Source: Saprospira grandis str. Lewin (GTDB taxonomy: Bacteria > Bacteroidota > Bacteroidia > Chitinophagales > Saprospiraceae). From it: DNA of 64,000 nt. Under the pieces are notes generated by a model that ran no database searches, had not been told where the DNA came from, and saw only the letters and a program-made list of their open reading frames with translations. The stretch covers positions 1,224,995 to 1,288,994 of the forward strand of contig NC_016940.1 in NCBI RefSeq assembly GCF_000250635.1. Reading direction: 5' to 3'. The stretch's first letter is position 1; each line of letters opens with the position of its first letter. The position numbers and the translations under genes are program-made. This document shows, piece by piece, positions 3,552 through 57,537 of the stretch.

Positions 3552-3607
3552 TCTTTTTCGGTTTTTCTTGATTTCTCATCTAGAGGCCTTCCTTTTGGAA
3601 GGTCTCT

Positions 3608-3735: not shown

Positions 3736-3815
3736 ATAGCCACTGCGGCTTTCAGCCGCAGCAAAAAGGGCCAGCTCAAAAGCTGGCCCAAGACCTAGCA
3801 GGGCGCAAAGCGCCC

Positions 3816-3945
3816 GCAGGCTGAGGGATGGGAGCAGGGCCGCCGCAGGCGGCAGACCCAGGCGCTTTAGTGCCGCAGGGCCGAGCGAACAGCGAGCTGC
3901 GGACAGCCCGACCCGCCCGCAGGGCGGGGCAGCCCCAAAAAATCA
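3816..3945. repeat. GC-rich intergenic repeat element, reverse orientation, variant B
   Basis: Sequence 'ggctgagggatgg...gccgcagggccgagcgaacagcgagctgcgg...ggggcagccccaaaa'. Reverse-complement form of the copies at 6855-7000, 15436-15592 and 62460-62650. Confidence 0.8.
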
Positions 3946-3955
3946 TCATCTAGTA

Positions 3956-5424: not shown

Positions 5425-6108
5425 CTATTTGCTAAGGCTTTCTAAAAGGCTTTTGGCCCCTTCAAACAAGCTGTCTAGGGCTTTTTCCATTTGCCAGCCG
5501 GCTCTATTGCGGGGCTCTACATAATTGGAGATAGACCGCAGGGCCACAAAAGGCTGTTTGGCTTGCAGGCAGGCAAAGAAAAAAGCGGCTCCCTCCATAC
5601 TCTCCAAATCGGCCTCGGGATATTTGGCCCGAATCTGCTCGATAGAATGGGCAGAGCCATGGGCTTTATTGACCGTTAGGCCCGTAGCCAAGGGCAAAAA
5701 CTCGCTTTCATCGGCTTGGGGGTTATAGAGGCGCTTATTGATATAAGGCGGGTTGCTCGGTTCTAAGAGGCCCAAATCAAAGAGGTCTAGAAGGCGGCCA
5801 TCTTTTTCCTCGGCCCCTAGGTCTCCTAAGATTTCGGCCCGAACGTGATAGAGCTGGCCCAAAACCAAATCGGGGTTCAAGGCTCCAGCTACCCCTAGGT
5901 TGATGGCCAAATCGGGGGGATTTAGGAGGAGCTCTTGGCCCAAAGCATGGGCGGTATGCATACTGCCCACCCCAGTAATTAGGCAATGTAGTTCTAGTTG
6001 GCCTTGCTTAAAGCTGCCCGCTCTGCGCTGAGGCTCCCAGTTTTTGTACAGCCATTGCAAAAGGGGCGAAATTTCTAGTTCGGTGGCGGCGACAATCAGG
6101 AGTTTCAT
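5425..6108 (-). CDS. Nucleoside phosphorylase-I family hydrolase (MTA/SAH nucleosidase or futalosine hydrolase MqnB-like)
   Basis: 'MKLLIVAATELEISPL' N-terminus and 'ITGVGSMHTAHAL' resemble the MTAN/MqnB fold. 227 aa is a typical length. Confidence 0.5.
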   Translation of the reverse strand: MKLLIVAATELEISPLLQWLYKNWEPQRRAGSFKQGQLELHCLITGVGSMHTAHALGQELLLNPPDLAINLGVAGALNPDLVLGQLYHVRAEILGDLGAEEKDGRLLDLFDLGLLEPSNPPYINKRLYNPQADESEFLPLATGLTVNKAHGSAHSIEQIRAKYPEADLESMEGAAFFFACLQAKQPFVALRSISNYVEPRNRAGWQMEKALDSLFEGAKSLLESLSK

Positions 6109-6815
6109 AGTTGAGTGGCTTGTTCGGCGAGATATTCTTCTTGGCTCATGCGGTCATAATAACGCATCTTAAAACGGTCCTTTTCGAGGACCACTTGGGT
6201 GTGGCTGACCGTCTGCACAATGCCATTATTTCGGTACATCACTAGGCCATTTTCGATATCGCCTTGGCCCCCTTCCTGATGAAACTGCCAGGCAGATTCT
6301 GGGCGGTAAGTTCCTTGCTGGCACTTCCAATCTGTAAACCAGCCCGCTCTTTGGGCCTGAATAGGCGCTGGATAAAGGGTGGCTGAAGACCAGATATAGG
6401 CCTCGGTGGGCATCAATTTTTCTACATGGGCTTTTTCCTCATCCCAGCGCAATTGATACAAATTGCCTCGCTCATAAATGACCAAAGTAAAGGGTTCGAT
6501 GCCTTCAAAATCGTAGTGTTCAAAAAAGCTGGGCGCATCTTCATAATCAAAGAAGTCGAGGACCAGCAGGCCACGGCTGCGTTTATAAGGCGGTTGATGC
6601 TTATGTTTCACAAAGGCGCCATTGAGCAAACAAAGCAGGCGGCCATTATCCGAGGCGGCAATCCAAGTTCCCCCTTGGCTCGGCTCTTTGGGGTAAATCA
6701 CCCCCTTTTCCTCATTCTTAAAAATCCCCTCGGGTTGGCGGCGGGGGCTCTCATCTCGGTTAGAGGTCAGTACAAATTGGTCCTTGCCTAGGGGCAAGTA
6801 AGTTACGGTACACAT
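6105..6815 (-). CDS. NRDE-family protein (DUF833/TANGO2-like)
   Basis: Starts 'MCTVTYLPLGKDQFVLTSNRDESPRR', i.e. the literal N-terminal Cys and NRDE motif. The ATG at 6813-6815 was verified on the reverse strand. The longer ORF call 6105..6971 runs through a repeat copy and is rejected. Confidence 0.75.
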   Translation of the reverse strand: MCTVTYLPLGKDQFVLTSNRDESPRRQPEGIFKNEEKGVIYPKEPSQGGTWIAASDNGRLLCLLNGAFVKHKHQPPYKRSRGLLVLDFFDYEDAPSFFEHYDFEGIEPFTLVIYERGNLYQLRWDEEKAHVEKLMPTEAYIWSSATLYPAPIQAQRAGWFTDWKCQQGTYRPESAWQFHQEGGQGDIENGLVMYRNNGIVQTVSHTQVVLEKDRFKMRYYDRMSQEEYLAEQATQL

Positions 6816-6854: not shown

Positions 6855-7000
6855 AAATTTTGGGGCTGCCCCGGCCAAGGGCCGGGTCGGGCTGTGTCGG
6901 GGCTCGCTATTCGCTCGGCCCTGCGCGGGCTTTGCCCGCTGGGTCTGCGGCTTCGCCGCCCCCCTATCCATCCCTCAGCCTGCGGCGCTTCGCGCCTGCT
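6855..7000. repeat. GC-rich intergenic repeat, variant B, forward
   Basis: Sequence 'ggggctgccccggcc..gggtcgggctgtgtcggggctcgc..ttcgctcggccctgcgcgggctttgcccgctgggtctgcggcttcgccgcccccctatccatccctcagcc'. Confidence 0.85.
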
Positions 7001-7667: not shown

Positions 7668-7830
7668 ATGGCGGCTTTGCCGCCTTGGCCGCAGGCCAAA
7701 CGGCCTAGCGATGTGCAGGGGTGGCCGAAGGCCAGACCGAAGCGCGCAGCGCTGAAGGGCCGAGCGAACAGCGAGCCCTGGAACGTAGCGCCGCAGCTTT
7801 GCTGCGGAGGCCCCAAAAAATCAGCGAGCC
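7668..7830. repeat. GC-rich intergenic repeat, variant A, reverse
   Basis: Sequence 'ggcctagcgatgtgcaggggtggccgaaggccagaccgaagcg...gggccgagcgaacagcgagccctggaacgtagcgccgcagctttgctgcggaggccccaaaaaa'. Confidence 0.85.
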
Positions 7831-15435: not shown

Positions 15436-15592
15436 TTTTTCTTTTTTGGGGCTGCCCCGCCCTGCGGGCGGGTCGGGCTGTGTCGGGGCTCGCAGGTCTG
15501 CTCGGCCCTGTGCGGGCTTTGCCCGCTGGGTCTGCGGCTTCGCCGCCCCCCTTTCCATCCCTCAGCCGAGGCGCTCCGCGCCTCTCGCCCAA
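15436..15592. repeat. GC-rich intergenic repeat, variant B, forward
   Basis: Sequence 'ttttggggctgccccgccctgcgggcgggtcgggctgtgtcggggctcgcaggtctgctcggccctgtgcgggctttgcccgctgggtctgcggcttcgccgcccccctttccatccctcagcc'. Confidence 0.85.
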
Positions 15593-17680: not shown

Positions 17681-18979
17681 ATGATGCACCGCCTCCTTTT
17701 GTGGATTCCTTATATATTTTATTGTTTTTATTCTATGCTAAGTAGGATTTGGGGCCTCCTGCCTTCGGCAGGCGCTATGTTCGGCAGCTCGCAAGTCTGC
17801 TCGGCCCTGCGGCCCTACGGGCCTGGGTCTGCGGCTGCGCCGCACTGCCTACCAGCGCTAGGCCCTGCCCGCCCTCGGCCCAATAACGTCCTACAGGCGG
17901 CGATAGCCGCCGCAGGCCTAGGGATGGAAAGCGGTGGCCGAAGGCCAGACCGAGGCGGCTTTGCCGCCGAAGGGCCGAGCGAAGAGCGAGCCGCGACACA
18001 GCCCGCCGCCAAGGCCGCAGGCCTGCAGCGGAGGCCCCAACTCCTGCTGATTATCCTTACCTTTTTACTGCCTGTACTGGCTTCTGCCCAAGCCAATATT
18101 CAGTTTTTGGTGGATAGTACAGAGTTGTTGATTGGCGACCAATTGACGGCTCGGATGCGGCTAGAAAGTCGAGAAGATGTACTGGTCCGCCTGCCCAACC
18201 CTACGGTATATTGGGATGATGACTTAGTGGAAGTCATTCGACTTTCGGATCAATTGGAGGAGATTAGCCCTGATGGATTAAATAGTTTTGAGAAAAAGAT
18301 CACTTTTACCTTTTGGGATACGGGCCATTATCAGCTGCCCGATTTGCCCATTTTGTATCAGAAAGATGGACAAATAGACAGTCTTTGGTTGAAAGTGCCC
18401 CTGATTCGGGTCAAGTTTCCGCCGGGCATTCGGGGCGATTCTAGTTATGTTGCACCGATTAAGGACATTATGGATGAGCCGCAGAATTTTATAGAAAAGC
18501 TGCTAGAATGGTTCTTCTTTTATCTGCCAATTGTTGCGGTAGTTTTTCTCATTTTGTTTGCTAGTGTCTTGGGCTTTTTGGCCTATTTGCTCTACAAAAA
18601 AGCGCAGGCTAGAAAAACCTACAAAACGCCTGAAGAGCGGGCACGTATAGCCCTAAAAAAGCTATTGGCCAAGGGCTATTTGGAGCGAGAAGAATGGGCA
18701 GAATTTCATACGGGCATCAGTTGGATTATCCGGAGTTATTTGCGGCTTCGTTTTAGAGTTCGGGCTTTAGAGGCCACCACTAATCAGCTATTAGATCGGC
18801 TAAATTATGAGCATCTAGAGCAGAGTTTACTCTTAGAATTGAGAGAAGTACTAGAAACTGCGGATTTGGTCAAATATGCCAAGGCTTCGCCTTTGGCGGC
18901 GGCCAATGATTTTTCCTTAAAATTTATCCATAAAATGTTGGAATATGTAGAGCGGCAGGAAGCCCTCCGCAATCGTTAA
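17681..18979 (+). CDS. Bat-operon membrane protein (DUF4381-like); true start uncertain
   Basis: Central TM segment 'WFFFYLPIVAVVFLILFASVLGFLAYLLY'. The N-terminal ~120 codons of the ORF call are occupied by two back-to-back GC-rich repeat copies (17745-18045), so the annotated ATG at 17681 is doubtful. A signal-like 'LLLIILTFLLPVLASAQA' follows the repeat with no in-frame ATG. Confidence 0.55.
   Translation: MMHRLLLWIPYIFYCFYSMLSRIWGLLPSAGAMFGSSQVCSALRPYGPGSAAAPHCLPALGPARPRPNNVLQAAIAAAGLGMESGGRRPDRGGFAAEGPSEERAATQPAAKAAGLQRRPQLLLIILTFLLPVLASAQANIQFLVDSTELLIGDQLTARMRLESREDVLVRLPNPTVYWDDDLVEVIRLSDQLEEISPDGLNSFEKKITFTFWDTGHYQLPDLPILYQKDGQIDSLWLKVPLIRVKFPPGIRGDSSYVAPIKDIMDEPQNFIEKLLEWFFFYLPIVAVVFLILFASVLGFLAYLLYKKAQARKTYKTPEERARIALKKLLAKGYLEREEWAEFHTGISWIIRSYLRLRFRVRALEATTNQLLDRLNYEHLEQSLLLELREVLETADLVKYAKASPLAAANDFSLKFIHKMLEYVERQEALRNR
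17745..18045. repeat. Two adjacent GC-rich repeat copies (forward then reverse) lying inside the 5' end of an ORF call
   Basis: Sequence 'ggggcctcctgccttcggcaggcgctatgttcggcagctcgcaagtctgctcggccctgcgg...' then '...ggtggccgaaggccagaccgaggcggctttgccgccgaagggccgagcgaagagcgagccgcg...gcggaggccccaa'. Confidence 0.8.
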
Positions 18980-22437: not shown

Positions 22438-22590
22438 GGAAGCAGCCAAGCGCAACTTGGCCTAGCGATGTGCAGCAGTGGCCCGCAGGGCCAGACCGAG
22501 CCGCTGAAAGCGGCGAAGGGCCGAGCGAACAGCGAGCTGCGAAACGTAGCGCCGACGACCGAAGGGAGGCGGAGGCCCCAAATAAATAGA
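22438..22590. repeat. GC-rich repeat copy (variant A, reverse) located inside the Bat operon
   Basis: Sequence 'ggcctagcgatgtgcagcagtggcccgcagggccagaccgagccgctgaaagcggcgaagggccgagcgaacagcgagctgcgaaacgtagcgccgacgaccgaagggaggcggaggccccaaa'. Confidence 0.85.
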
Positions 22591-25139: not shown

Positions 25140-25275
25140 TTTGGGGCCTCCGCAGCAAAGCTGCGGCGCTACGTTTCGGGGCTCGCTGTTCGCTCGGCCC
25201 TGCGGCAGCAAAGCTGCCTGGGTCTGGCCTGCGGCCACCCCTACACATCGCTAGGCCTGCGGCGCTCCGCGCCTG
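25139..25275. repeat. GC-rich repeat, variant A, forward
   Basis: Sequence 'tttggggcctccgcagcaaagctgcggcgctacgtttcggggctcgctgttcgctcggccctgcgg...ggtctggcctgcggccacccctacacatcgctaggcctgcgg'. Confidence 0.85.
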
Positions 25276-28077: not shown

Positions 28078-28222
28078 TTTGCTGTTAAAGCGCTTGGGGG
28101 CGGCTTGGCCGCCTTGGCCGAAGGCCAAATGGCCCAGCGCTGCGGCGGGGTGGCCGAAGGCCAGACCAAAGGCGAAACGAAGTGGAGCCTGAAGGGCCGA
28201 GCAGAACTGCGAGCCCCAAAGC
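28078..28222. repeat. GC-rich repeat copy (variant A, reverse), left part, interrupted by an IS insertion
   Basis: '...ggcccagcgctgcggcggggtggccgaaggccagaccaaaggcg...gggccgagcagaactgcgagccccaaagc'. Continues at 29781-29832 ('ccccaaagcatagcggcggccgcc...gggccccaaaa'), matching the intact copy at 51945-52090. Confidence 0.8.
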
Positions 28223-41734: not shown

Positions 41735-41895
41735 TTGTGGGCTGGGGAGGCGGCAGCCATGGCCCGCAGGGCCAAACGGCCTAGCGATGCGGCGGGGTGG
41801 CCGTCAGGCCAGACCAAGGCGGCGCAGCCGCCGCAGGGCCGAGCAGACCTGCGAGCCCCAAAGCGTAGCGCCGCAGCTTGCTGCGGAGGCCCCAA
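41735..41895. repeat. GC-rich repeat, variant A, reverse
   Basis: Sequence 'ggcctagcgatgcggcggggtggccgtcaggccagaccaaggcggcgcagccgccgcagggccgagcagacctgcgagccccaaagcgtagcgccgcagcttgctgcggaggccccaaa'. Confidence 0.85.
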
Positions 41896-42013
41896 ATAAA
41901 AAGGCTGAAGTAAATACTTGTTATCTTGCTGAAGCTTTGTTAAATTTGGGGCTTGTTTTTGGGGCTTAGGGTCCTGAGCAGATATTAACAAACCGTATTA
42001 CGAATAATATATC

Positions 42014-45377: not shown

Positions 45378-45513
45378 AACAAAGTTACGATTTTCGTACT
45401 ATAGTTTTAACTACTAAAACTAGTTTAGCACTCTTTGGTCCTCAAAAGAAATATCTCAGTATTAAGCAAACCAAAGCCGCCAACTTATCTCTATAAGCTG
45501 GCGGCTTTATGCG

Positions 45514-46026
45514 CTACTTGGGATTCCACCAAAGCCCCCCTTCTACTCCCCCAGCCTCTCCAATTTCTAGCTCCCAAATACTGCCCAAAGGCGTATGGCA
45601 ACCATAGGGACAAGTATAGGGGTAGTCGAGTAGCTCTTTCTTGGGGTCCAAATACTCCAAAATCATATTGATGGGCCCACAATGGCTAAAGATGGCCGTG
45701 GGCCGAGCCCATAACTGCTGCTGCTCTCCCCGATACCAATCCTGCACTCTTTGTTCTAGTGACTCATGCGGCTCTATTTCTTTCTCTCTTTCTCTTAATG
45801 CCTGCACTACTTTCGGCTGCAAAGCTGGCACAAGCTGAGCATAGGGCGCATAGGTCTGCCCTACCCGCAAATAATCGCTACAATATACGGCCTGAATATC
45901 TTTCTTTGCTAAATATTGGGCAATGGCTAGAGCTTGCTCTTTTCCCTTTTCGCCCAAGGCTGGCCCCGGAAAACCCCGATATTCTTTGGGGGCAGGCTGG
46001 GCATGACGCACTAGATAAAGCTTCAT
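45514..46026 (-). CDS. Histidine-phosphatase-family protein (phosphoglycerate-mutase-like / SixA-like)
   Basis: 'MKLYLVRHAQP' contains the RHA motif of the catalytic His. 170 aa. Confidence 0.6.
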   Translation of the reverse strand: MKLYLVRHAQPAPKEYRGFPGPALGEKGKEQALAIAQYLAKKDIQAVYCSDYLRVGQTYAPYAQLVPALQPKVVQALREREKEIEPHESLEQRVQDWYRGEQQQLWARPTAIFSHCGPINMILEYLDPKKELLDYPYTCPYGCHTPLGSIWELEIGEAGGVEGGLWWNPK

Positions 46027-46718
46027 ATTTTATGTTGACAGTCTCCTTTTTCGTTAATAATTTCATGTTCCCCCCCTTGGTTCTGCACCAACGCAAAGCC
46101 ATTGTAAAAGGGCTCTAGCTGCAAAAATCGACGATTATATACGGGCCGCCCCGCCAAATCGATATGCAACCAACCCGCCTCATCTTTGGCCCGGGCAAAT
46201 CCTTTGTGAAAAACATCTAGTTCTAGATAGCGATAAGGATGTAAGGCCCTGCCCTGAGAATCAATATGCAAACAATAGCCATCGGCCTGACGAACACAGG
46301 CATAGCCATCCCTAAAGTCGCCCGCATAGCGATAACGCTCCTCATAAAGCGGATGTCCCTGCAGATCAATATGGAAGTATTCCCCGCCTTTTCGGACCGT
46401 GCAAATGTCTTGCTGATAGTTCCCACACCAGTCATAACGCTCTCCATAAATGGCATTTCCTTTTGTGTCTATATGAAATTGCCCCTGCTCCGAAGATACC
46501 GCCGCCCGCTCACAATAATAACCAAAGGTCCGCAAATATCGCTGCCGATAAAGGGCCATGCCCTCGCTGTTGATATGATAACTGCCCGTTTCGTCTTCTA
46601 CAGGCGCCAAACCCGGCGCATGAAACTTTAATACCGACTTATAAGGACCAAATATAGCTTGCCCTTCCAAGCAAAATCCATTGCCCTCTGCATTGACTTT
46701 TATGTTTTTCCAATTCAT
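46023..46718 (-). CDS. WG-repeat-containing protein
   Basis: Repeated ~30-aa units of the type 'G..LHIDSQGR.L.P.RY....F..GFA.V....GW..ID..G' (KWG/WG repeat-like). Confidence 0.5.
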   Translation of the reverse strand: MNWKNIKVNAEGNGFCLEGQAIFGPYKSVLKFHAPGLAPVEDETGSYHINSEGMALYRQRYLRTFGYYCERAAVSSEQGQFHIDTKGNAIYGERYDWCGNYQQDICTVRKGGEYFHIDLQGHPLYEERYRYAGDFRDGYACVRQADGYCLHIDSQGRALHPYRYLELDVFHKGFARAKDEAGWLHIDLAGRPVYNRRFLQLEPFYNGFALVQNQGGEHEIINEKGDCQHKI

Positions 46719-47686
46719 CTTTTCTCAAATATCAATAGGGTCTGTAAATCATTGATCGGACGCTTTTCTAGATAAGCAAAGCCTATTTTCTCTGCTAATT
46801 TCCGATAGGCAGCTAAGGTCCGTTCTTGGCTCTTGCAAATGGCCAACATATTCAAACTAAGCAGCTCGGCCCCATCGGCTAGCTGCTCTTTTAGGATTTC
46901 TAAGATATACATTCGCCCTCCTTTTGGCAAGGCGGCATAAACGTTTTCCAATATTTTCAAGGCAGCTTCATCGGGCCAATCATGTAGCACTCTGGCCAGA
47001 AAAATATGCTCCGCGACTTGGGGAATAGGCGCAAAAAAATCGGCTGGAATAGGCCGAAAAGGCAGCTCCCCCGCTGGCAATAAAGCCAAGACCTTGGGCT
47101 TGTCTAATAAATAATATTTAGGCTGAGGATGAACCCTCGCCAAGGCCTTGAGCAAAGCCCCCAGACCGCCTCCCAAATCCATCACAGCCTTAGCTTCCGA
47201 CAAATCCAACTGCTCGCCCAACTGCGCATAATCATCCCGCGCATATTCGTTCATCGCCAAATGATAAATCCGATTGCTCTCGGGCTGCTCATCCAAATAA
47301 TCAAAAAAAGGCTGTCCATATAGCTGCTCAAAAACGGCCTCATCACTGCGAATACTCTGCGCCAAATGCTGCCAAGCCCGCAAATGCTCCTCCCCCCAAA
47401 GCAAACAAGCATACTTCAAAGATTGGGGATGTTCCTCCGCCAGTTGCGCCCCTTTTTCGGCCAAAACATACTGCCCATTTTCGGTCCTCAAGGCCGCCAA
47501 TTGCTCCAAAGCCGCCAATAATAACTGCAAACTAGCCTGTTTAGCCCCTAGCTTTTCGGCCAACTCAGCCAAACTAAGCGGCCCCTCCCAAAGCGCATCA
47601 AATACCCCCAGCTGGCAGGCGGTCCGCAAGGGCAAATAATGCCAATAACTGGTAAAACTATTCTTCAACTCCTGACTAATACTCAT
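46715..47686 (-). CDS. Class I SAM-dependent O-methyltransferase (COMT/ASMT-like)
   Basis: N-terminal dimerisation/winged-helix region. SAM motif 'VMDLGGGLGALLKAL' and 'YYLLDKPKV'. Confidence 0.7.
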   Translation of the reverse strand: MSISQELKNSFTSYWHYLPLRTACQLGVFDALWEGPLSLAELAEKLGAKQASLQLLLAALEQLAALRTENGQYVLAEKGAQLAEEHPQSLKYACLLWGEEHLRAWQHLAQSIRSDEAVFEQLYGQPFFDYLDEQPESNRIYHLAMNEYARDDYAQLGEQLDLSEAKAVMDLGGGLGALLKALARVHPQPKYYLLDKPKVLALLPAGELPFRPIPADFFAPIPQVAEHIFLARVLHDWPDEAALKILENVYAALPKGGRMYILEILKEQLADGAELLSLNMLAICKSQERTLAAYRKLAEKIGFAYLEKRPINDLQTLLIFEKR

Positions 47687-47704
47687 TTTTTTCTGTTCTA
47701 CATG

Positions 47705-47850
47705 ATTTGATTTTGGGGCCTCCTGCCTACGGCAGGCGCTACGCTTTGGGGCTCGCTATTTGCTCGGCCCTTCGGCGGCTTTGCCGCCTCGGTCTGGCCT
47801 AACGGCCACCCCGCCGCATCGCTAGGCCAAAAAAGGCCTGCGGCTGAGCT
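47705..47850. repeat. GC-rich repeat, variant A, forward
   Basis: Sequence 'ttttggggcctcctgcctacggcaggcgctacgctttggggctcgctatttgctcggcccttcggcgg...ggtctggcctaacggccaccccgccgcatcgctaggcc'. Confidence 0.85.
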
Positions 47851-47865
47851 AGAGAGTAAGCTAAG

Positions 47866-48768
47866 CTACCAGCGCTCTAAAGTTCGATGACTCACTCCTA
47901 AAGCCTCCCCTGCTTTTTGTAAAGTGCCATATTTCTCTACAGCCCAATATTTAAGTTTTGCCTTAAAGTTTCTAATTAGCTCATCAGCACTTTTATCTTC
48001 GATACTGAATTCATAAATGCCTGTCTCTTTACTTTCGGGAAAATGATTGTATTTCTTGAATCCTGCTATAACTTCTTGCGCCAAATGCTTATCGTCCACC
48101 TCTTTTTCAGCTAAAATATCTCTATAAGATTGATCCCAGCTTATACAAAGTTTATCCAGGTCTCTGAAATTTCCATTAAAGCTATGCCCCTTCTCCTTTA
48201 GGAAATCTTCTAACACTTTAGGGTAAGGCGCTTTTTTAAACCCAAACTTTTTCCAACTTACCTTAAAGTCTTCAACAATCTTAGCGGAACAACTATCAAA
48301 GCTCGGAAACTCCACTACAAGTTGAGCAATGCGATCAAAAAAATGATTGCTCAAGTATTGCCGACTATCTCTTAGGTTCGCAATAGGTTTAGAGGAACTA
48401 AAGACAACACGTACCTCATACTCTTTTTCAGCTAAGCCAAATTTCCCATCCTTAGTCGACAGCCCTTCAAATAACAACTCTTGGCTTTTTTTAGACAAAT
48501 ACTCCACATCCTTAATCAAAAGGATTTTCTGATGTGCTTTTTTTAAAATATGCGCCCAAAAATCTTTTGTCTCTTCGGTTAAGCGCCCTTTTACCATAAT
48601 CACTTCTATTCCTTTTTTTTCTGCAAACTGTTCTAGCCAAAATGTTTTTCCAGTCCCTGTTTTTCCTAGGATAAGAATAGAAAATCGTCCTGGATTCTCA
48701 AGGTAGTTATTCAATTTCTGAATAGCTGCCTTTCTTTTTGCGTGCTGTTTATCTATTGACACTTTCAT
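47866..48768 (-). CDS. Truncated RtcR-like AAA+/HTH regulator lacking both the N-terminal CARF-like domain and the GAFTGA region
   Basis: 300 aa. Walker A 'ILILGKTGTGKTF' sits at residue ~30. 'FFDRIAQLVVEFPSF' matches the sigma54-activator 'FReDLyyRLnV..i.lPpL' segment. 'NGNFRDLDKL' vs E. coli RtcR 'RGNFRELSAS'. C-terminal Fis-type HTH 'LQKAGEALGVSHRTLERW'. No GAFTGA. Confidence 0.6.
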   Translation of the reverse strand: MKVSIDKQHAKRKAAIQKLNNYLENPGRFSILILGKTGTGKTFWLEQFAEKKGIEVIMVKGRLTEETKDFWAHILKKAHQKILLIKDVEYLSKKSQELLFEGLSTKDGKFGLAEKEYEVRVVFSSSKPIANLRDSRQYLSNHFFDRIAQLVVEFPSFDSCSAKIVEDFKVSWKKFGFKKAPYPKVLEDFLKEKGHSFNGNFRDLDKLCISWDQSYRDILAEKEVDDKHLAQEVIAGFKKYNHFPESKETGIYEFSIEDKSADELIRNFKAKLKYWAVEKYGTLQKAGEALGVSHRTLERW

Positions 48769-48887
48769 TTATGTATTTTTTTGCGGGTTATTTAGTCTTT
48801 TTTTGCGGGTATCAATATGCCTCTTACCTATGCCCTACATTTGTAGAGTAATCAGCTGATACACTATTATTTACTTATTTAAAATCA

Positions 48888-49040
48888 ATGCTTATGAAAT
48901 ACGATGGAAAAGATTCTGATGAAATGGAACAACACGATATAGACAATCGTGCTGACCAACTTAACCCCAATAATGATGCATACTGGACTTCTAGAGACTA
49001 TGATGAGCGTCCAAATGATTGGGAAGATCTTGTTGACTAA
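48888..49040 (+). CDS. Unannotated small ORF, 50-aa highly acidic peptide (hypothetical)
   Basis: Translates to 'MLMKYDGKDSDEMEQHDIDNRADQLNPNNDAYWTSRDYDERPNDWEDLVD', codon-checked. Below the 60-aa ORF-track cutoff. Divergent from the truncated regulator gene. Confidence 0.35.
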   Translation: MLMKYDGKDSDEMEQHDIDNRADQLNPNNDAYWTSRDYDERPNDWEDLVD

Positions 49041-49077
49041 CATCCAATAAATTTAATCACTTCTAAATTGACAGAAC

Positions 49078-49179
49078 ATGGCCAAATCAACAAAGAAAAC
49101 AGGCTTAAACCTACCAAGTACAACTGGAAACCCTTCTGGTAAGGGACGTGATAATTGCTCTTCTAAACCAAAGAAGTAG
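49078..49179 (+). CDS. Unannotated small ORF, 33-aa basic Ser/Thr/Gly-rich peptide with one Cys (hypothetical)
   Basis: Translates to 'MAKSTKKTGLNLPSTTGNPSGKGRDNCSSKPKK', codon-checked. Ends 10 bp before a perfect bidirectional terminator. Confidence 0.35.
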   Translation: MAKSTKKTGLNLPSTTGNPSGKGRDNCSSKPKK

Positions 49180-49188
49180 CCCTTTTTT

Positions 49189-49221
49189 ACCGCTATACTA
49201 GTTTTAGTATAGCGGTTTTTT
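49189..49221. terminator. Bidirectional rho-independent terminator
   Basis: 'ccgctatacta gttt tagtatagcgg' is an 11-bp perfect stem, flanked by 'cccttttttac' on one side and 'tttttt' on the other. Confidence 0.8.
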
Positions 49222-49229
49222 ATCTACGC

Positions 49230-50255
49230 CTACTTCCGCATCGTACAGCCTTGGCAAAGGGGCTTTTCCTTATAGTTTTCTACCAATTCTACGTAGGCTT
49301 TACTTTGTAGGACCTCCACAAGGCTGCGGTTCTGAATACTACCAAAGTCGCCTAAGGCTTGCCGCTGCTCATCGGGGGCGCAGCAGGGCGATATTTTCCC
49401 GGTGGCCGAGACCCAAAGTTCTTTATTTAAGAAAGGGCAGTCGTAGTCTTCTGGGACCGCCTCTGCTGCGCCTGCCGTTAGGGGGACAATATTTTCTAGT
49501 AAAACAGCTTTGCCATTGGGCAGTAAATATTGGTCTCTAGCCGCATAGGCCTCTTCTACATATTGGTTCCATTGGGCCATGCTTTGGGCATCCTTACGAA
49601 AAGACAGGTCCTTGATTTCATCAAAATGATCCCACAACTGATGCCCTTTTACCCGATCTACGCCAAGACTAGCCGCTAGCTTGATGATATCGGCTAGTTC
49701 ATGCATATTGTTTTGCATGAAGGTGAGTTGGAAACTCACACGGCAATAATAGCCCGTTTCTGCAAAATGCTGGTCCCTTACAGCCACAAAGCGACGGACA
49801 TGATCTACACACTGCTCGAAGTTAATTCCAGGCATGACTTCCTCAGCCGTTTTGGCTGTGGCCGCATTCCAAGAGATTTTAATGTCTGTGGTTTGTGGTA
49901 CAATCAGTTTGGCCCAAACCTCTACGGGCTTTTTAGGAAAGGTCCCATTGGTGGTCAAGTTGATTTTAATCCCATACTGCTCACTCAAATCAAAGATTTG
50001 CTCAAAGCCTTTATAGAGCAAGGGCTCGCCCATGGTAGAGGGGATAATCTCTTTGACGCCCAAGGCTTGGGCCTGCTCAAAAATCTGGACCACCCACTCA
50101 AAAGGCATACGGCGACGCTTGACGCCCGTGTTTTTATAGAGGTCTGCGATAAATGTACTATAAGGACTATGCTCCTCGCACATAATACAATGCAAGTTGC
50201 AATCTTCAGGGTTGGTGTCTATGGTAATTCGCCAAAAGTCTTTAGGCTTGGACAT
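49230..50255 (-). CDS. Radical SAM enzyme with C-terminal SPASM/twitch-type auxiliary-cluster domain
   Basis: 'EDCNLHCIMCEE' is C-x3-C-x2-C at residues 19-26. C-terminal 'CPFLNKELWVSATGKISPCC' fits C-x12-G-x4-C-C. Terminal 'PLCQGCTMRK'. 341 aa. Confidence 0.75.
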   Translation of the reverse strand: MSKPKDFWRITIDTNPEDCNLHCIMCEEHSPYSTFIADLYKNTGVKRRRMPFEWVVQIFEQAQALGVKEIIPSTMGEPLLYKGFEQIFDLSEQYGIKINLTTNGTFPKKPVEVWAKLIVPQTTDIKISWNAATAKTAEEVMPGINFEQCVDHVRRFVAVRDQHFAETGYYCRVSFQLTFMQNNMHELADIIKLAASLGVDRVKGHQLWDHFDEIKDLSFRKDAQSMAQWNQYVEEAYAARDQYLLPNGKAVLLENIVPLTAGAAEAVPEDYDCPFLNKELWVSATGKISPCCAPDEQRQALGDFGSIQNRSLVEVLQSKAYVELVENYKEKPLCQGCTMRK

Positions 50256-51531
50256 GCAAAATAGCTTTATACTGTTCTAAAATGGTTGCTGTATGTGTTT
50301 TTATATCAGGGACCTCTCCGGCGGCATCATAGAGATAGCCTCTTTGGCCCAATTGCTTCATTTCTTCGGGATGTTGAATGGCCCAGGCCATTTGCTCTTG
50401 CAATGATGGACCATCTCGGTGCTTGAAGAGCAGGCCATTGACCCCATGCGCTACATATTCTGCCATGCCGCCATAATCTGCCGTGATGACAGGCAAACGA
50501 GCCGCCTGCGCCTCATGAATCACCAAAGGAGAGTTTTCGCCCCAAATAGAAGGGACCACAATGGCATCTACCTGAGCAAAGACCTCTTGGACCAAATCTT
50601 CATTGGCATAGCCCCCACAAAATGAAATCCGCTGACTTTGTGCTGCGCTCATGGCGTTTAAGGCCTTTTGGCTTTGGCTGTCTTTCCAGCCCCAAATCTT
50701 TAGCTCTGCCGCTTGATCCAAGCCCTTAAAGGCCTCTATGAGTAGGTTGACCCCCTTGGCGGGAATATGCGTGCCGATATACCCAAAGCGAAAAGGTCCA
50801 GCTTTTCGAGCTGTTTTGGGCGGACTTAAATAATGCGTTGGAAAGCCATAATCTAGATAACTTACTTTTTCGGCAGGCAAATTAAAGTCCTTGATAAAGC
50901 GATTCATCAGATAGCGAGAGGGCGCAATAAAATGATCGACTAGCCCAATAATTTCTCTTGTTTTCTGCATCCGTCGGCCGATCCATCGGCTCCAATAGGC
51001 TAGGTCTTCGGCTTCTTCTTCTGGATGGCCAGAAAAGAGCATTTTGTAGCAAGAGGCCGCACATTTTTGGTCCTCTTGACCCGTACAGAGCTGATAGCAG
51101 TTTTGGCCATCAAAGTTGCGCTGTAGAAACTGACCTCGGGGACACATCAGCCAGAAGTCATGCAAGGTAAAGAGAATAGGCACCCCCGCCTTTTTCAGCG
51201 CTTGGACCAAGCCCAAGGACAGATGATTAAGATGGCCAATATGAGCCACATCTGGACGGTCTTGGGCCAAAATAGCCGCCAGCTTTTGGTCGACCTGCGG
51301 CTGCCAATAGCCATCTTTGTCTCTGGGCATATTGACCAAATGAAACTGTAAGCCCTGCTCATCTTTAAAAGAACGCAGCTCAAAATCTGGCCGATAAGGT
51401 TCCTCCTCTCGGCTGAAAATGCTGAGCCGATGCCCCTGCCGATGCAGTTCTTGGCAGAGGCTCTGGCTATAGACTTCGGAGCCTGCACTGTAGCCCGGCG
51501 GATAGCCATGAATAATTTTTAGAATGTGCAT
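50242..51531 (-). CDS. GT4-family (GT-B) glycosyltransferase with a Cys-rich insertion
   Basis: N-terminal 'MHILKIIHGYPPGYSAGSEVYSQSLCQELHRQGH'. C-terminal 'VVPSIWGENSPLVIHEAQAARLPVITADYGGMAEYVAHGVNGLLF' is the E-x7-E sugar-donor motif region. Insert 'CPRGQF..CYQLCTGQEDQKCAASCY'. Overlaps the radical-SAM start by 14 nt, which argues for an operon. Confidence 0.75.
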   Translation of the reverse strand: MHILKIIHGYPPGYSAGSEVYSQSLCQELHRQGHRLSIFSREEEPYRPDFELRSFKDEQGLQFHLVNMPRDKDGYWQPQVDQKLAAILAQDRPDVAHIGHLNHLSLGLVQALKKAGVPILFTLHDFWLMCPRGQFLQRNFDGQNCYQLCTGQEDQKCAASCYKMLFSGHPEEEAEDLAYWSRWIGRRMQKTREIIGLVDHFIAPSRYLMNRFIKDFNLPAEKVSYLDYGFPTHYLSPPKTARKAGPFRFGYIGTHIPAKGVNLLIEAFKGLDQAAELKIWGWKDSQSQKALNAMSAAQSQRISFCGGYANEDLVQEVFAQVDAIVVPSIWGENSPLVIHEAQAARLPVITADYGGMAEYVAHGVNGLLFKHRDGPSLQEQMAWAIQHPEEMKQLGQRGYLYDAAGEVPDIKTHTATILEQYKAILHVQA

Positions 51532-51944
51532 TTTTTCAATTTATGGTTTAGGGAAGGCTGTTGGGAACTAGCTCAAAAGGAGAGTTTTGTCTTTGTGCCC
51601 CTTTTGTGCTCCACTTATTTCAGCTAATCAAAAGGATGTGCCAAAAAACAAAAACCAACTAAACAACTAACAACCAACAACTTACAAAAACAAGCTAATT
51701 TAAAGCTGCTGTAAAATTTTGGAATCTATGTATTTTTTTACAGTTTCAGGATAAATTTAGGGCAATACTTAGGCGGCTTCGCCGCCTTGGCCGAAGGCCA
51801 AATGGCTAAAGGCCAAATAGCAGTCCTCTCACTTCTATCCTTTGATGCAATTTCCTGCTATTCTGCGTTATTTTTCTCAGCCATAGCTAGGGCTATGCCT
51901 TTAAAAAATGCCTTGAGTAGCCTGAAATTTCTATCCAAGGATGG

Positions 51945-52090
51945 CCGAAGCGAAGGGCTTCTATTTGGCCTAGCGCTGCGGCGGGGTGGCCCAAAGGGCC
52001 AGACCTAGGCGGCAAAGCCGCCGCAGGGCCGAGCAGACCTGCGAGCCCCAAAGCATAGCGCCCGCAGCTTGCTGCGGGAGGCCCCAAAAG
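51945..52090. repeat. GC-rich repeat, variant A, reverse (a separate fragment lies at ~51765-51800)
   Basis: Sequence 'ggcctagcgctgcggcggggtggcccaaagggccagacctaggcggcaaagccgccgcagggccgagcagacctgcgagccccaaagcatagcgcccgcagcttgctgcgggaggccccaaaag'. Confidence 0.85.
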
Positions 52091-52113
52091 CCCCTCATTT
52101 AACCCTCAAAACT

Positions 52114-53940
52114 ATGGCAAAAGAAAACATTTACATCAGTTGGCATTATACTACTCATGGTATTGCATTTTTGCAGCATCAATTGGCGGCTTTTTGGCGG
52201 GGGGAGCTGCAATTATCGGAAAAGCCCTTGTATAAGGAAGGGCTTTGTCAGTTAGAATTGAGCGAGGCCTTTTCGGCAAATCGGCAGCCTGGATTTTTAT
52301 TTGACAAGGTCTATTATTTATGTGCCGAGCAGACTGTTTTGGACCGTTTATCTCTTCGGCGTTTGAGCTATCGGAAGAATATGTATGAGGTAGACAAAGC
52401 AGTGGAGGAGACGCAGATGCAGGAGGTTTGGAGAGAGGTGATTGCGCAGGATCTTTCCTCTTGGGTAGATGAGATGGCTTATGTAAAGGAACATTATCCC
52501 GATCGTTTGGAAGACTTTGAGGGGCAAATTTGGCGGGATATGCAGCATTATCCCATTGACAGTCAGCTAGCATGGTTTAGGAGAAGGTCGCCTGCTGCGC
52601 CTTATTATCAAGCTCGTTTTGAGGCCATTCATTTTAGCCAAGAAGAGCTACCAAACTTGCGAGACGAGCAGAGTATTTTGGCTGTTTTGCAAGGATTTTT
52701 CAAAACTCTTTTGGCCCATCATGGGGCCGAGGCCAATTATATCATCAATGTCAGTTTGGGCAGTAATGAAACGCAGGTCGCTTGGTTTGTCCTGGCCGAG
52801 GCGGGGCTCTTGCCCCCCAACTGTCGATTCATCAAGGTCTATGATGTTAAGACCAAAGGCGCAGATCCTCGTTTTAAGAATTTCCAAATTCAGGAGATTC
52901 CCAGCCGCCTAATTTCTAGTTTATCGGCCAACTTATATGAGCATGACAACCTACAATCGCCCCAGCGGCGTTTGGCTGATCTCAAGATGAAGACCTATAT
53001 AGAGCAAGGTTTTGCCATATTGATTTTGGGCGAAAGAGGAACGGGAAAATCCAGAATGATTTCAAGATTGGAGCGAGAAAACCGCAAGGTCTTAGCCATC
53101 AATTGTGCCTCCTTTGATGATGATAACAAGGCTGAATCGGAGTTTTTTGGACATAGCAAGGGGGCCTATACTGGGGCAGATCAAGCCAAAAAGGGCTTAT
53201 TTGAAGAAGCTCGGGGCGGAATTCTCTTCTTTGATGAGGTACATCATTTGAGTAAGCGGGTACAGGGCAAACTCATGAAAGCCCTACAAACCGATGAGAA
53301 CAACAACTATCGTTTTCGGCCCATGGGGAGCAGCCAAGAACAGCAAAGTCAGTTTACTGCTGTTTTTGCTAGCAACAAAAGTATTGAAGAGCTGCGGGAG
53401 CTTTTATTGGCCGACTTCTTTGATCGTATCTCTCAGCTCCTGATTGAGCTGCCCCCACTGCGGGAAAGTCGAGATGAAATTGAAAAAGACTGGGAAACCG
53501 TTTGGACGCAACTGCGCTTTGCCCCTAGCTACCCCTGTCCTAAATCTCCAGAGCTTTTCCAATGGCTCAAAAAGCAGCCTTTGTGGGGCAACTTTAGAGA
53601 TTTGCAAAAGATAGCCATCTATTATAAGGCCTTTATGGATTTACCCCAAGAGGCTCAACAACTAGAGGGAGTAGATAGCCCTCTGGCCTTTGCCAAAAAG
53701 GAGTTTAAGGCCTATCATGGGCATTTTCCTAAGCAAACTAAGTTGCCCCAAGCCTTTCAAGACCTCTTTGATCTGGAGCTCATTGCCTCAGAGACAGAAG
53801 AAAAGACCTATAAAATTCTGGAGAAGCGCTATAAAAAGGCCCTTATTAGTTGGGTAGAGGAAAACTTTCCCGCTCAACCGGTTTGGGAGATTTTAGGCAT
53901 GAGCGAAAGTAATTACTACAAGATGAAGAAAGAGGGCTAA
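52114..53940 (+). CDS. rtcR: RtcR-like sigma54-dependent transcriptional regulator with N-terminal CARF-like sensor domain
   Basis: Compared with recalled E. coli RtcR: 'ETQVAWFVLAEAGLLPPNCRFIK' vs 'THVAQICWFLLAEARYLPARLIQ' (end of CARF domain); 'ILILGERGTGKSRM' vs 'ILLNGPTGAGKSFL'; 'ESEFFGHSKGAYTGA' vs 'MSTLFGHVKGAFTGA' (GAFTGA loop); 'GGILFFDEVHHL'; 'DFFDRISQLLIELPPLRESRDEIEKD'; 'GNFRDLQKIAIYY'. Start set at ATG 52114 ('MAKENIYISW'), downstream of the repeat. Confidence 0.75.
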   Translation: MAKENIYISWHYTTHGIAFLQHQLAAFWRGELQLSEKPLYKEGLCQLELSEAFSANRQPGFLFDKVYYLCAEQTVLDRLSLRRLSYRKNMYEVDKAVEETQMQEVWREVIAQDLSSWVDEMAYVKEHYPDRLEDFEGQIWRDMQHYPIDSQLAWFRRRSPAAPYYQARFEAIHFSQEELPNLRDEQSILAVLQGFFKTLLAHHGAEANYIINVSLGSNETQVAWFVLAEAGLLPPNCRFIKVYDVKTKGADPRFKNFQIQEIPSRLISSLSANLYEHDNLQSPQRRLADLKMKTYIEQGFAILILGERGTGKSRMISRLERENRKVLAINCASFDDDNKAESEFFGHSKGAYTGADQAKKGLFEEARGGILFFDEVHHLSKRVQGKLMKALQTDENNNYRFRPMGSSQEQQSQFTAVFASNKSIEELRELLLADFFDRISQLLIELPPLRESRDEIEKDWETVWTQLRFAPSYPCPKSPELFQWLKKQPLWGNFRDLQKIAIYYKAFMDLPQEAQQLEGVDSPLAFAKKEFKAYHGHFPKQTKLPQAFQDLFDLELIASETEEKTYKILEKRYKKALISWVEENFPAQPVWEILGMSESNYYKMKKEG

Positions 53941-56504: not shown

Positions 56505-56710
56505 TTGGGGCCTCCCGCCTTCGGCGGGCGGTTACTCCCTTCAGTCGTCGAACTGCGGCCTAAAGGCCTTGTTGTCGTTCCGCAGCTCGCTGCTGTTTTG
56601 GGGCCTCCCGCCTTCGGCGGGCGCTACGTTCCGCAGCTCGCTCTTCGCTCGGCCCTGCGGCCTGACGGCCTTGGTCTGCGGCTGCGCCGCACTGCTACAC
56701 ATCGCTAGGC
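56505..56710. repeat. GC-rich repeat, variant A, forward, with an internal partial duplication (two 'ttttggggcctcccgccttcggcgggcg' heads)
   Basis: First head at ~56507 and second head at ~56596, then '...cgctacgttccgcagctcgctcttcgctcggccctgcggcctgacggccttggtctgcgg...catcgctaggcc'. Confidence 0.85.
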
Positions 56711-56782
56711 CGCTCATCTGCCTTTTTCTAGCTTAAGTTTCTTCTTTGGCGGCTGGGTAGTTTTGGGCCGATGGGCTGAAGC

Positions 56783-57306
56783 CCATTTGGAGGATGCTAT
56801 TCTGCAACTGCAAAACGACACATTCCATTTGGAGGATGCTATTCTGAAACTGCAAAATGGCATATTCCATTTGGAGGACGCTATTCTGCAACTGCAAAAC
56901 GGCATATTCCATTTAGAGGATGCTATTCTGAAACTGCAAAACGGCATATTCCATTTGGAGGACGCTATTCTGAAACTGCAAAACGACACATTCCATTTGG
57001 AGGACGCTATTCTGAAACTGCAAAATGGCATATTCCATTTGGAGGACGCTATTCTGCAACTGCAAAACGACATATTCCATTTGGAGGATGCTATTCTGCA
57101 ACTGCAAAACGACATATTCCATTTGGAGGACGCTATTCTGAAACTGCAAAACGACACATTCCATTTGGAGGATGCTATTCTGAAACTGCAAAACGGCATA
57201 TTCCATTTGGAGGATGCTATTCTGAAACTGCAAAATGGCATATTCCATTTGGAGGACGCTATTCTGCAACTGCAAAACGACACATTCCATTTGGAGGACG
57301 CTATTA
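56783..57306. repeat. 42-bp tandem repeat array, 12 full units plus 1 partial
   Basis: Unit 'ccatttggaggaYgctattctgMaactgcaaaaYgRcaYatt'. Unit starts 56783, 56825, 56867 ... 57287 verified for the first two, then in register. No unique spacers. Open in several frames on both strands (+: 'HLEDAILQLQNGIF'; -: 'IASSKWNMPFCSFR'). Confidence 0.9.
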
Positions 57307-57354: not shown

Positions 57355-57495
57355 TCGTCTTACAGGCCCGAAGGGCCGCAGGCCTAGCGATGCGAAAGGG
57401 GGCGGCGAAGCCGCAGACCAAGGCCGTCAGGCCGCAGGGCCGAGCAGACCTGCGAGCCCTGAAGCGTAGCGCCTGCAGCTTTGCTGCAGGAGGCC
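57355..57495. repeat. GC-rich repeat, variant A, reverse
   Basis: Sequence 'ggcctagcgatgcgaaagggggcggcgaagccgcagaccaaggccgtcaggccgcagggccgagcagacctgcgagccctgaagcgtagcgcctgcagctttgctgcaggaggccccaaaa'. Confidence 0.85.
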
Positions 57496-57537
57496 CCAAA
57501 ACAACAACAGCAAGAGCATAAAAAACAGCAGACTAAA

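Follow-up and report, generated by a model that had tools for sequence, protein, structure and literature searches.

Here, a regulator and its neighbouring operon were analysed in a 64,000-nucleotide stretch of DNA from Saprospira grandis str. Lewin (NCBI RefSeq assembly GCF_000250635.1, contig NC_016940.1, positions 1,224,995 to 1,288,994 of the forward strand; hereafter, the window). A 608-residue protein, the long regulator, is encoded divergently from an operon that begins with a GT4-family glycosyltransferase (GT) and a radical-SAM (rSAM) enzyme. In our assessment, the chances are somewhat better than even that the operon directs the inducible synthesis of a small-molecule glycoside and that its transcription is gated by the long regulator, a dedicated CARF enhancer-binding protein.

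The long regulator and its predicted CARF domain

A first-pass annotation, made from the sequence alone, had described the long regulator as an RtcR-like protein with a CARF-type N-terminal domain and a sigma54-type AAA+ core with a GAYTGA loop. Both domains were borne out. An AlphaFold2 (AF2) model of residues 1 to 295, built from an alignment of 54 homologues, reached a pLDDT of 91.5 and a pTM of 0.87. When this model was compared with the PDB by Foldseek, the top ~46 matches were exclusively CARF proteins (best E=6.6e-4), including Csm6, Card1, Cad1, Cam1, Can2, Cdn1, and ring nucleases. The TM-scores were low (~0.3) because a helical insertion of ~90 residues (73 to 165) splits the Rossmann-like core. 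The N-terminal domain, spanning about residues 1 to 270, is confidently modelled as a CARF fold. Two of its loops, WHYTTHG after beta1 and LGSNETQVxW after beta4, are invariant or nearly so among the 54 homologues and form the predicted ligand pocket. In the core, Sigma54_activat (PF00158) matched residues 291 to 444 at 114 bits, and the GAYTGA loop is present together with 'NETQVAWFVLAEAGLLP'; the consensus loop of the family is GAFTGA. The ATG at 52114 agrees with the N termini of the homologues. The long regulator is 94% identical to a Saprospira grandis protein, and exact-match look-ups with it and with the protein P0001 gave nothing.

The RtcR-like label held for the class of the protein and failed for orthology. 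The PADLOC profile RtcR_PspF1--CARF_AAA_HTH (PDLC01994) scored 275.8 bits, aligning residues 198 to 585 with profile positions 81 to 444 of 468, whereas the NCBIfam equivalog for RtcR (NF038308) scored 140.4 bits against a cutoff of 650 (residues 179 to 500 on profile positions 79 to 414). In the window, in the syntenic Saprospira relative L089, and in 5/5 homologues sampled at 40 to 49% identity (L001, L002, L096, L097, and L098), the divergent neighbour is the GT4-rSAM operon, not rtcBA. Orthology to RtcR was rejected on the basis of both the score and the neighbour. The long regulator is a CARF-containing bacterial enhancer-binding protein (bEBP) of a class previously catalogued as RtcR-like without Rtc linkage. 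Such regulators are associated with restriction-modification systems and CoCoNuTs (PMC4012209, PMC11090510).

Linkage of the regulator to the GT-rSAM operon

With its divergent position kept in all of the sampled homologues, the long regulator very probably has the GT-rSAM operon as its target, as the first-pass annotation had supposed. That annotation had also proposed two places in which to look for a sigma54 promoter. On the minus strand of 51532-51780, a candidate was found whose -24 element is perfect and whose -12 element is degenerate, shifted by one base, and devoid of the GC. Around 48770-48890, no sigma54 site was found; two 16-nt direct repeats occupy this region instead.

A strict consensus was of little use for this analysis. 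TGGCAC-N5-TTGCW with up to two mismatches gave 25 matches in the whole window against 39.7 expected, a mandatory GG/GC core within 700 bp upstream of the GT was matched in just 3/76 loci, and a search for enriched k-mers among the intergenic sequences yielded AT-rich words only. The strict consensus was dropped, and a test for TGGCAY was used together with inspection of the intergenic regions. On the operon strand, TGGCAY was present in 17/23 loci with a GAFTGA-containing regulator and in 1/20 loci without one (Fisher p=5e-6); three more GAFTGA-positive loci carried one-base variants. These elements sit 40 to 100 bp before the first operon gene. At the canonical -12 spacing, T12 (14/16), T13 (10/16), and G14 (9/16) were enriched and C15 (3/16) was not, and L052 has a perfect sigma54 consensus, TGGCACGCAGATTGCA. 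The covariation of the GAFTGA loop with TGGCAY is the strongest available evidence for activation of the operon by the long regulator through sigma54.

The regulator varies among related loci. A survey of 80 loci by tblastn and open reading frame (ORF) clustering included 62 with complete upstream flanks and 64 with complete downstream flanks. Among the 62 with enough upstream sequence, a long CARF regulator was encoded in 14, a CARF-less regulator in the same position in 23, and neither in 25. In the alignment, the CARF-less proteins split into two forms, namely, a PspF-like "mid" form (L039, L047, L050, L065, and L066), made up only of an AAA+ domain, which retains a GAFTGA-type loop and the Walker B DE, and a helix-turn-helix (HTH), and a "short" form. 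The cassette is not tied to an RtcR-like neighbour, the absence of which was to count against the first-pass reading: about 40% of the loci lack one, as do the Rickettsia and Arsenophonus plasmids described below.

Gene content and conservation of the operon

The two-gene operon of the first-pass annotation stands as far as the GT and rSAM genes and their 14-nt overlap are concerned, and every ORF coordinate was confirmed. The operon (45514-51531, minus strand) is longer than supposed, however, and continues with genes for an O-methyltransferase (OMT), a WG-repeat protein, and a histidine phosphatase, all on the minus strand, where stop and start codons overlap from one gene to the next (Table 1). 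A scan of 44 to 58 kb of the window against Rfam gave no RNA family at E<=0.1.

Table 1. Features of the regulator-operon locus (positions in the window)
Feature	Position	Strand	Evidence
Long regulator, 608 aa (CARF, sigma54-type AAA+ with GAYTGA, C-terminal HTH)	52114-53940	+	Pfam, NCBIfam, PADLOC, AF2
Candidate sigma54-type promoter TGGCACATCCTTTTGA, 96 bp 5' of the GT start codon	51628-51643	-	sequence
GT4 glycosyltransferase, first operon gene in this strain	50242-51531	-	Pfam
Radical-SAM enzyme with SPASM/twitch C terminus, 341 aa	49230-50255	-	Pfam Radical_SAM, SPASM
Hairpin, 12-bp perfect stem then T-run; putative terminator of the small-ORF transcript	49189-49216	+	sequence
s33, 33 aa, basic, one Cys	49078-49179	+	conserved family, consensus N-W/L-PS-x-x-G-K-PSG-x-GR-x-NNPPKPKK
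s50, 50 aa, acidic, motif DNRADQLNPNNDAYW	48888-49040	+	relative in L079
Two 16-nt direct repeats GTmTTTTTTTGCGGGT, 22-bp spacing; putative short-regulator operator	48773-48810	+	sequence
Short regulator, 300 aa	47866-48768	-	weak Sigma54_activ_2 and HTH_50 (Pfam); PADLOC; alignment
1370-bp indel module (short regulator, repeats, s50, s33, hairpin)	47857-49226	.	blastn vs L089
Class-I O-methyltransferase, small-molecule (phenolic) type, with dimerisation domain	46715-47686	-	Methyltransf_2, 124 bits
WG-repeat protein	46023-46718	-	Pfam WG_beta_rep
Histidine-phosphatase superfamily protein, last operon gene	45514-46026	-	His_Phos_1, 62.5 bits
Terminator-like hairpin closing the operon, 17-bp stem	45472-45509	-	sequence

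The GT matched Glycos_transf_1 (PF00534) at 93 bits and Glyco_transf_4 (PF13439) at 79 bits, and it passes the cutoff of GT4-conflict (PF20706; 29.1 versus 26 bits). Its sequence relatives in the PDB are solely of the MshA type, enzymes whose acceptor is phosphorylated. For the rSAM enzyme, the SPASM domain (PF13186) scored 38 bits against a cutoff of 21.5. Its conserved cysteines are C19, C23, and C26 (the invariant CxxxCxxC), C171, C273, C291, C292, C334, and C337; with five invariant C-terminal cysteines rather than the seven-cysteine SPASM motif, one or two auxiliary clusters are possible. A fold search of this enzyme cannot separate peptide from small-molecule substrates. It falls far below the prokaryotic viperin cutoff (NF038283, 24.1 versus 180 bits; PADLOC pVip, 32.7 bits). 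The solved structures nearest to the OMT are 6c5b (1e-42), CalO6, MmcR, CalO1, ASMT, and DnrK, all of which are phenolic small-molecule methyltransferases.

The core of the cassette is well conserved. The rSAM enzyme has hundreds of homologues at 60 to 80% identity (mean column identity in the alignment, 71%), and at least 520 cassette loci were found among 185,579 species representatives, one genome per species. The carriers are nearly all Bacteroidota, with a few Ca. Uabimicrobium and one metagenome-assembled genome of the Leptospiraceae. In every one of the 62 loci whose upstream flank is complete, the GT4 gene lies directly 5' of the rSAM gene, and the WG-repeat protein is encoded downstream in all 64 with complete downstream flanks. 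Some phosphatase is present in 60 of these 64 and belongs to one of three non-homologous groups, namely, Y_phosphatase3 with or without a PolB-type nucleotidyltransferase (NTase) and two His_Phos clades. An OMT was found in 25/64 loci, a NodU/CmcH-type carbamoyltransferase in 8/64, and either of them in 32/64. Fusions join the GT to the rSAM enzyme in several genomes, the rSAM enzyme to a phosphatase in one genome (P0230), and the WG-repeat protein to a methyltransferase in L098, Rickettsia, and Arsenophonus.

Plasmids of Rickettsia (pREIP and R. asiatica) and Arsenophonus carry the GT, the rSAM enzyme, and the WG-repeat protein, plus a methyltransferase, at 46 to 48% identity and with no bEBP. 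In pREIP (L087, NZ_KR611317, 17.7-27.5 kb) and the Arsenophonus plasmid (L088, CP132908), the core consists of a fused GT-rSAM protein and a WG-methyltransferase. The neighbours of the trio on the plasmids resemble a biosynthetic gene cluster: an NAD epimerase/dehydratase, a PhyH dioxygenase, an ABC transporter, and two pyridoxal phosphate (PLP) aldolases. Identity of the Rickettsia plasmid homologue with the published "aminoglycoside" cluster of R. buchneri was rejected, as the genes of that cluster (PIG-L, KanB, HemL, BtrB, and others) differ. Other variants include L098, in which an NAD-dependent sugar epimerase/dehydratase (5615-6607, minus strand) precedes the GT, as on the Rickettsia plasmid, and L097, in which a small P-loop kinase (AAA_18/AAA_33; 3451-3972, minus strand) lies between the rSAM enzyme and the NTase-phosphatase. 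L083 (IMGVR_UViG_2917530833_000001), which is classed as viral in IMG/VR, has the whole cassette in its short-regulator form, with the short regulator and a small ORF of family B in addition to the GT, rSAM, phosphatase, OMT, and WG genes.

The near-universal presence of a phosphatase, recruited from non-homologous families, fits a phosphorylated intermediate, and the optional carbamoyltransferase, sugar epimerase/dehydratase, and ABC exporter of the variants point to a diffusible glycoside. As judged from these genes, the most likely product of the enzymes is a glycoside of low molecular weight and not a modified peptide. The phosphatase, the PolB-type NTase, and the L097 kinase are also typical end-healing activities, and we weighed a pathway for modification or repair of RNA, tRNA, or DNA like RtcBA or Pnkp/Hen1, in which the phosphatase and NTase would heal ends, the methyltransferase and GT would cap or modify them, and the rSAM enzyme would alter a base. 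Such a pathway would share its regulator class with the RNA-repair regulator RtcR, and enzymes of the GT4 family are able to attach sugars to tRNA queuosine. We nevertheless regard it as unlikely: the OMT is of the phenolic small-molecule class and not a Hen1 or RNA methyltransferase, no ligase, nuclease, or RNA-binding domain was found in the core, and the carbamoyltransferase, exporter, and sugar epimerase/dehydratase suggest a diffusible small molecule.

Small ORFs in the leader position

Two small ORFs next to the cassette, s50 and s33, had led to the proposal of a RiPP-like system (RiPP, a peptide made on the ribosome and modified after translation). Both are real genes. Saprospira strains differ in them by five synonymous changes, a single V->I substitution, and an in-frame indel of one codon; s50 has three of the synonymous changes and the V->I, and s33 has synonymous changes only plus the codon indel. 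Both also have relatives elsewhere. In L079, a relative of s50 (42% identity over 36 aa) lies directly upstream of the GT, and members of the s33 family precede the GT gene by ~50 bp in at least nine other genomes (L008, L011, L027, L032, L038, L045, L053, L056, and L079). The motif QLNPN is common to s50 and the family B small ORFs. Small ORFs are nonetheless missing from many loci.

Across the loci, the leader position holds small hydrophilic families (A to D), ~100-aa families (E, F, and G), or nothing. Small ORFs lie directly upstream of the GT in roughly a third of the loci. L051, L054, and L042 have none, with a regulator-GT gap of only 104 to 137 bp. The ~100-aa families, none of which occurs in the window, are translationally coupled to the GT start: E in 20 loci (e.g., L014 8398-8718, L021 7603-7902, and L047 8413-8712), F in 7 (L010 8419-8721 and L050 6605-6907), and G in 5 (L002 9355-9645, minus strand, and L036 8324-8614). 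Pfam and NCBIfam searches with s50, s33, and families A, B, E, and F gave nothing significant. Weak matches were seen for family C, to the plant Seed Maturation Protein (SMP; E=0.018, below threshold), and for family G, to the toxin-like DUF4258 (E=0.002).

In the RiPP-like reading, the small ORF would be the precursor, which the SPASM rSAM enzyme would cross-link or oxidise, the GT4 would glycosylate, and the OMT would methylate, in the style of mycofactocin or Haft's GG-Bacteroidales systems. Mycofactocin does show that an rSAM-SPASM enzyme, a GT, and an OMT can work on a peptide-derived core, and the recurrence of small ORFs right before the GT would suit a precursor. The families A to D are unrelated, at least four in number, and have no common motif, so that no conserved precursor peptide co-occurs with the rSAM enzyme. 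This enzyme is 60 to 80% identical throughout while the small ORFs are unrelated or, as in L051, L054, and L042, absent, which makes a RiPP unlikely. In the 94%-identical relative L089, both s50 and s33 are missing and the operon is intact. No RiPP recognition element (RRE) or PqqD domain was matched in any cassette protein by Pfam or NCBIfam; the 341-aa rSAM enzyme has no N-terminal RRE, its model starting at the core barrel, and no PqqD-like gene was detected. A non-canonical peptide binder, such as the WG protein, is possible. The scores of known families also lie far under their cutoffs: 20.5 versus 300 bits for TIGR04148 (GG-Bacteroidales rSAM), 36.1 versus 400 for TIGR04157 (GG-Bacteroidales GT), and 20 versus 265 for MftC (NCBIfam). 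With tailoring enzymes of the small-molecule type as well, the RiPP-like proposal is improbable.

The short regulator and a 1370-bp indel

The 300-aa protein encoded between the rSAM and OMT genes had been taken for a truncated RtcR paralog. The Walker A motif of its AAA+ domain is intact; the protein also has a C-terminal HTH but no CARF domain. The notion of a truncated, pseudogene-like paralog was rejected, as proteins of this short form make up a conserved family: in other loci of the Bacteroidota, the place of the regulator is taken by orthologues, 15 of which were aligned (33 to 44% identity). In all 16 aligned members, the L1/GAFTGA segment is deleted and Walker B reads KD (as in the window), ND, or ED instead of DE. 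The protein thus lacks both hallmarks of a sigma54 activator, GAFTGA and the Walker B DE, and without GAFTGA it is presumably sigma54-independent. It appears to have cis-elements of its own. The putative operator repeats lie between the short regulator and s50, and paired TGCGT boxes ~22 bp apart were found beside the regulator start in 9/20 short-type loci and in 0/22 GAFTGA-positive loci.

The short regulator belongs to a module that is present in some Saprospira genomes and absent from others. L089 is syntenic with the window at 93 to 95% nucleotide identity and lacks exactly 47857-49226: by blastn, L089 8450-11029 corresponds to window 51806-49227 and L089 11037-13371 to window 47856-45523, and the OMT gene directly follows the rSAM gene. 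The module is found in the Saprospira contigs L093, L094, and L095. Comparison of the loci indicates that an entire control unit of the "short" type has entered, in inverted orientation, an operon of the "long" type. At the same rSAM-downstream junction, pairs recognised by eye as AbiEi/AbiEii-like are present in L035 (1439-3045) and L041 (9025-11201), and L035 has further unrelated genes there. The occurrence of the AbiE pairs and the 1370-bp insertion at the same rSAM-OMT junction suggests a hotspot for insertions.

Of the "perfect bidirectional terminator" reported beside the small ORFs, the 12-bp perfect stem is real and the bidirectionality was rejected on sequence. T-runs lie on both sides of the hairpin on the plus strand and A6GGG follows it on the rSAM strand, which is consistent with an intrinsic terminator for the plus strand only. 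Since the rSAM strand has no U-tract, read-through from the sigma54 promoter into the OMT, WG, and phosphatase genes may be possible.

A GC-rich, partly palindromic intergenic repeat of ~100 to 150 bp, which resembles repetitive extragenic palindromes or miniature inverted-repeat transposable elements (REP/MITE-like), is present in at least 14 copies in the window (6897-6998, 7702-7820, 15483-15583, 17748-17864, 22459-22589, 25140-25275, 28111-28222, 33277-33406, 39276-39371, 41761-41900, 47711-47828, 51967-52089, 56596-56711, and 57368-57504). Copies flank the regulator-GT intergenic region and adjoin the 1370-bp indel, and they yield spurious ORFs (e.g., 'GPPAAGGRYALGLA...'). Between two copies, a tandem array at 56783-57305 repeats a 42-bp unit 12.5 times (93% matches), with several frames open on both strands.

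Genomic context and possible role of the operon

A survey of flanks covered 142 genes beside the cassette in ~55 genomes, as raw counts. The recurrent families were McrBC (4), resolvase/recombinase (3), viperin (pVip; 2, E=7.5e-69), AbiLi (2), PD-Lambda-2 (2), and PARIS AriA (2); WYL, Schlafen, AbiEii-like ATPases, and BrxL were also found. In loci without a regulator, a defence-type gene lies immediately upstream on the same strand in 5/10 cases, encoding McrC, HsdR, HipA, a 1955-aa DEAD/MZB helicase, or an HEPN protein. The neighbours of long regulators in other genomes include GmrSD, WYL, and McrBC. The association of the cassette with defence is suggestive, and the surroundings of these other loci suit the earlier description of a "defence-like module under CARF control".

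Taken as a mechanism, the inducible glycoside operon could work as follows. A nucleotide-derived ligand (a cyclic oligoadenylate or, as for RtcR, a 2',3'-cyclic-phosphate RNA end) would bind the CARF domain and lift inhibition, and the AAA+ ring would remodel sigma54-RNA polymerase at the TGGCAC element (51628-51643), allowing transcription of the operon. The GT4 would join a sugar from a nucleoside diphosphate (NDP)-sugar to a phosphorylated acceptor. The SPASM/twitch rSAM enzyme, tightly coupled and sometimes fused to the GT, would then transform the GT product, comparable to the action of BlsE and DesII on nucleoside and nucleotide sugars. The phosphatase would strip the phosphate, the optional phenol-type OMT or NodU-type carbamoyltransferase might cap a hydroxyl, and the invariant WG-repeat protein may be a substrate-binding or scaffold partner. 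In the window, the 1.37-kb module, with its CARF-less, GAFTGA-less regulator, operator repeats, and two hydrophilic proteins, would add a second control layer.

Several observations weigh against this explanation. C15 is kept in only 3/16 sites and the -12 element of the window is shifted, so sigma54 dependence is predicted, not proven. With ~40% of the cassettes lacking a bEBP-type neighbour, CARF control would be one of several regulatory solutions. The genes that flank the locus in the window are of the housekeeping type (transaldolase, M20 peptidase, acetyltransferase, and AraC) and form no defence island, and the defence signal elsewhere is heterogeneous and derived from raw counts. Beyond architecture and co-occurrence, the mechanism is inferred.

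As the cassette often adjoins or directly follows genes of the restriction, Abi, viperin, HEPN, and toxin kinds, a role in chemical defence or conflict, anti-phage or abortive, is most likely, and abiotic stress is the main alternative. In the latter case, the GT4 and phosphatase would make a compatible-solute-like glycoside as a stress or dormancy protectant, by the two-step logic of sucrose-phosphate, glucosylglycerate, and mycothiol synthesis; the rSAM enzyme and OMT would modify it, CARF or sigma54 control would report general RNA damage, as Rtc does, and the co-transcribed small hydrophilic proteins, similar to late embryogenesis abundant (LEA) proteins or SMP, would be hydrophilins. The pairing of a GT4 with a near-universal phosphatase suits such a pathway, as do the housekeeping surroundings of the window locus and the leader ORFs, which are small, highly hydrophilic, and probably disordered. 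RtcR-type regulators reportedly respond to translation and RNA stress. The SMP match of family C points in the same direction but is under the threshold, and an rSAM step and phenol-type OMTs are foreign to known compatible-solute pathways. The patchy distribution (~520 of 185,579 species representatives), the occurrence on plasmids and IMG/VR contigs, and the frequent embedding among restriction, Abi, and toxin genes also argue against a stress protectant, which we consider rather improbable.

A more far-reaching version of the inducible glycoside operon can be offered only tentatively. The GT4, SPASM-rSAM, phosphatase, and WG proteins might constitute an unrecognised inducible chemical-defence pathway of the Bacteroidota, present in more than 500 species, in which the CARF domain would sense an infection nucleotide and sigma54 would switch on glycoside synthesis. 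If true, the glycoside would keep phages from replicating or send the cell into dormancy. Such a pathway would be a transcription-level counterpart of the activation of CARF effectors in type III CRISPR systems and would place new chemistry beside the products of viperins.

Comparison with known systems

No description of the cassette together with RtcR/CARF, with the WG repeat, or in an anti-phage setting was found in the searchable literature. The class of the regulator has been catalogued before; within the literature searched, its dedicated coupling to the GT-rSAM-phosphatase-WG cassette is undescribed, and so is the three-way swapping of regulators with matching cis-elements. A large CARF-bEBP family dedicated to an uncharacterised enzyme cassette is now identified. 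At the core of this cassette is a highly conserved, uncharacterised rSAM family, 60 to 80% identical phylum-wide, which recurs within defence islands as well as on plasmids of endosymbionts and IMG/VR contigs. The system bears on the ligands of RtcR-like CARF proteins outside Rtc, on the chemistry of GT4/SPASM-rSAM/WG systems, and on induced small molecules as an immune output. In addition, the replacement of the CARF regulator by PspF-like or GAFTGA-less forms with a matched promoter or operator illustrates cleanly how regulatory modules are swapped.

Allosteric switching of nucleases is what CARF domains are best known for, and to our knowledge RtcR is the single studied case of a CARF domain driving transcription. 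Like RtcR of the rtcBA system in Escherichia coli and Salmonella, the long regulator joins a CARF domain to an HTH through a sigma54 AAA+ domain that bears a GAFTGA-type loop, is divergent from its probable target, and is associated with a -24 TGGCAC. The Saprospira protein differs in the ~90-residue helical insertion of its CARF domain, its target (GT4-rSAM-phosphatase-WG), and the degenerate -12 element. Among CARF-less relatives, the mid regulators resemble PspF in having only AAA+ (GAFTGA) and HTH domains, and the 300-aa protein of the window resembles TyrR and HupR in the absence of GAFTGA. TyrR-type relatives without GAFTGA are sigma70-dependent. Unlike TyrR and HupR, the short family is cassette-specific, with the Walker B change DE->xD and its own 22-bp-spaced TGCGT/TGCGG box pairs.

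On the enzymatic side, BlsD/BlsE, the blasticidin-type pair of a GT and a SPASM/twitch rSAM enzyme, and DesII are distant (~16% identity; TIGR04466, 20.8 versus 400 bits), and their companions differ from the WG-repeat protein and phosphatase found here. Mycofactocin (MftA-F and MftM) and the GG-Bacteroidales systems likewise combine a small ORF with a SPASM rSAM enzyme, a glycosyltransferase, and an O-methyltransferase, but the present cassette has no conserved precursor, RRE, or chaperone, and its GT is of the GT4 type whereas MftF is of the GT2 type. The pVips are rSAM enzymes of defence islands that make an antiviral small molecule, and true pVips flank two of the sampled loci; the cassette enzyme is distinguished from them by its SPASM domain and by its obligatory GT and WG partners, in keeping with its low NF038283 score (24 versus 180 bits). 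The RtcR_PspF1/2 CARF_AAA_HTH regulators belong to the same class as the long regulator (PDLC01994), are not linked to Rtc, are frequent in defence islands, and have been proposed to drive transcription of defence cargo through CARF sensing (PMC4012209, PMC11090510). In those systems, the cargo comprises nucleases or restriction systems, whereas here it consists of biosynthetic enzymes.

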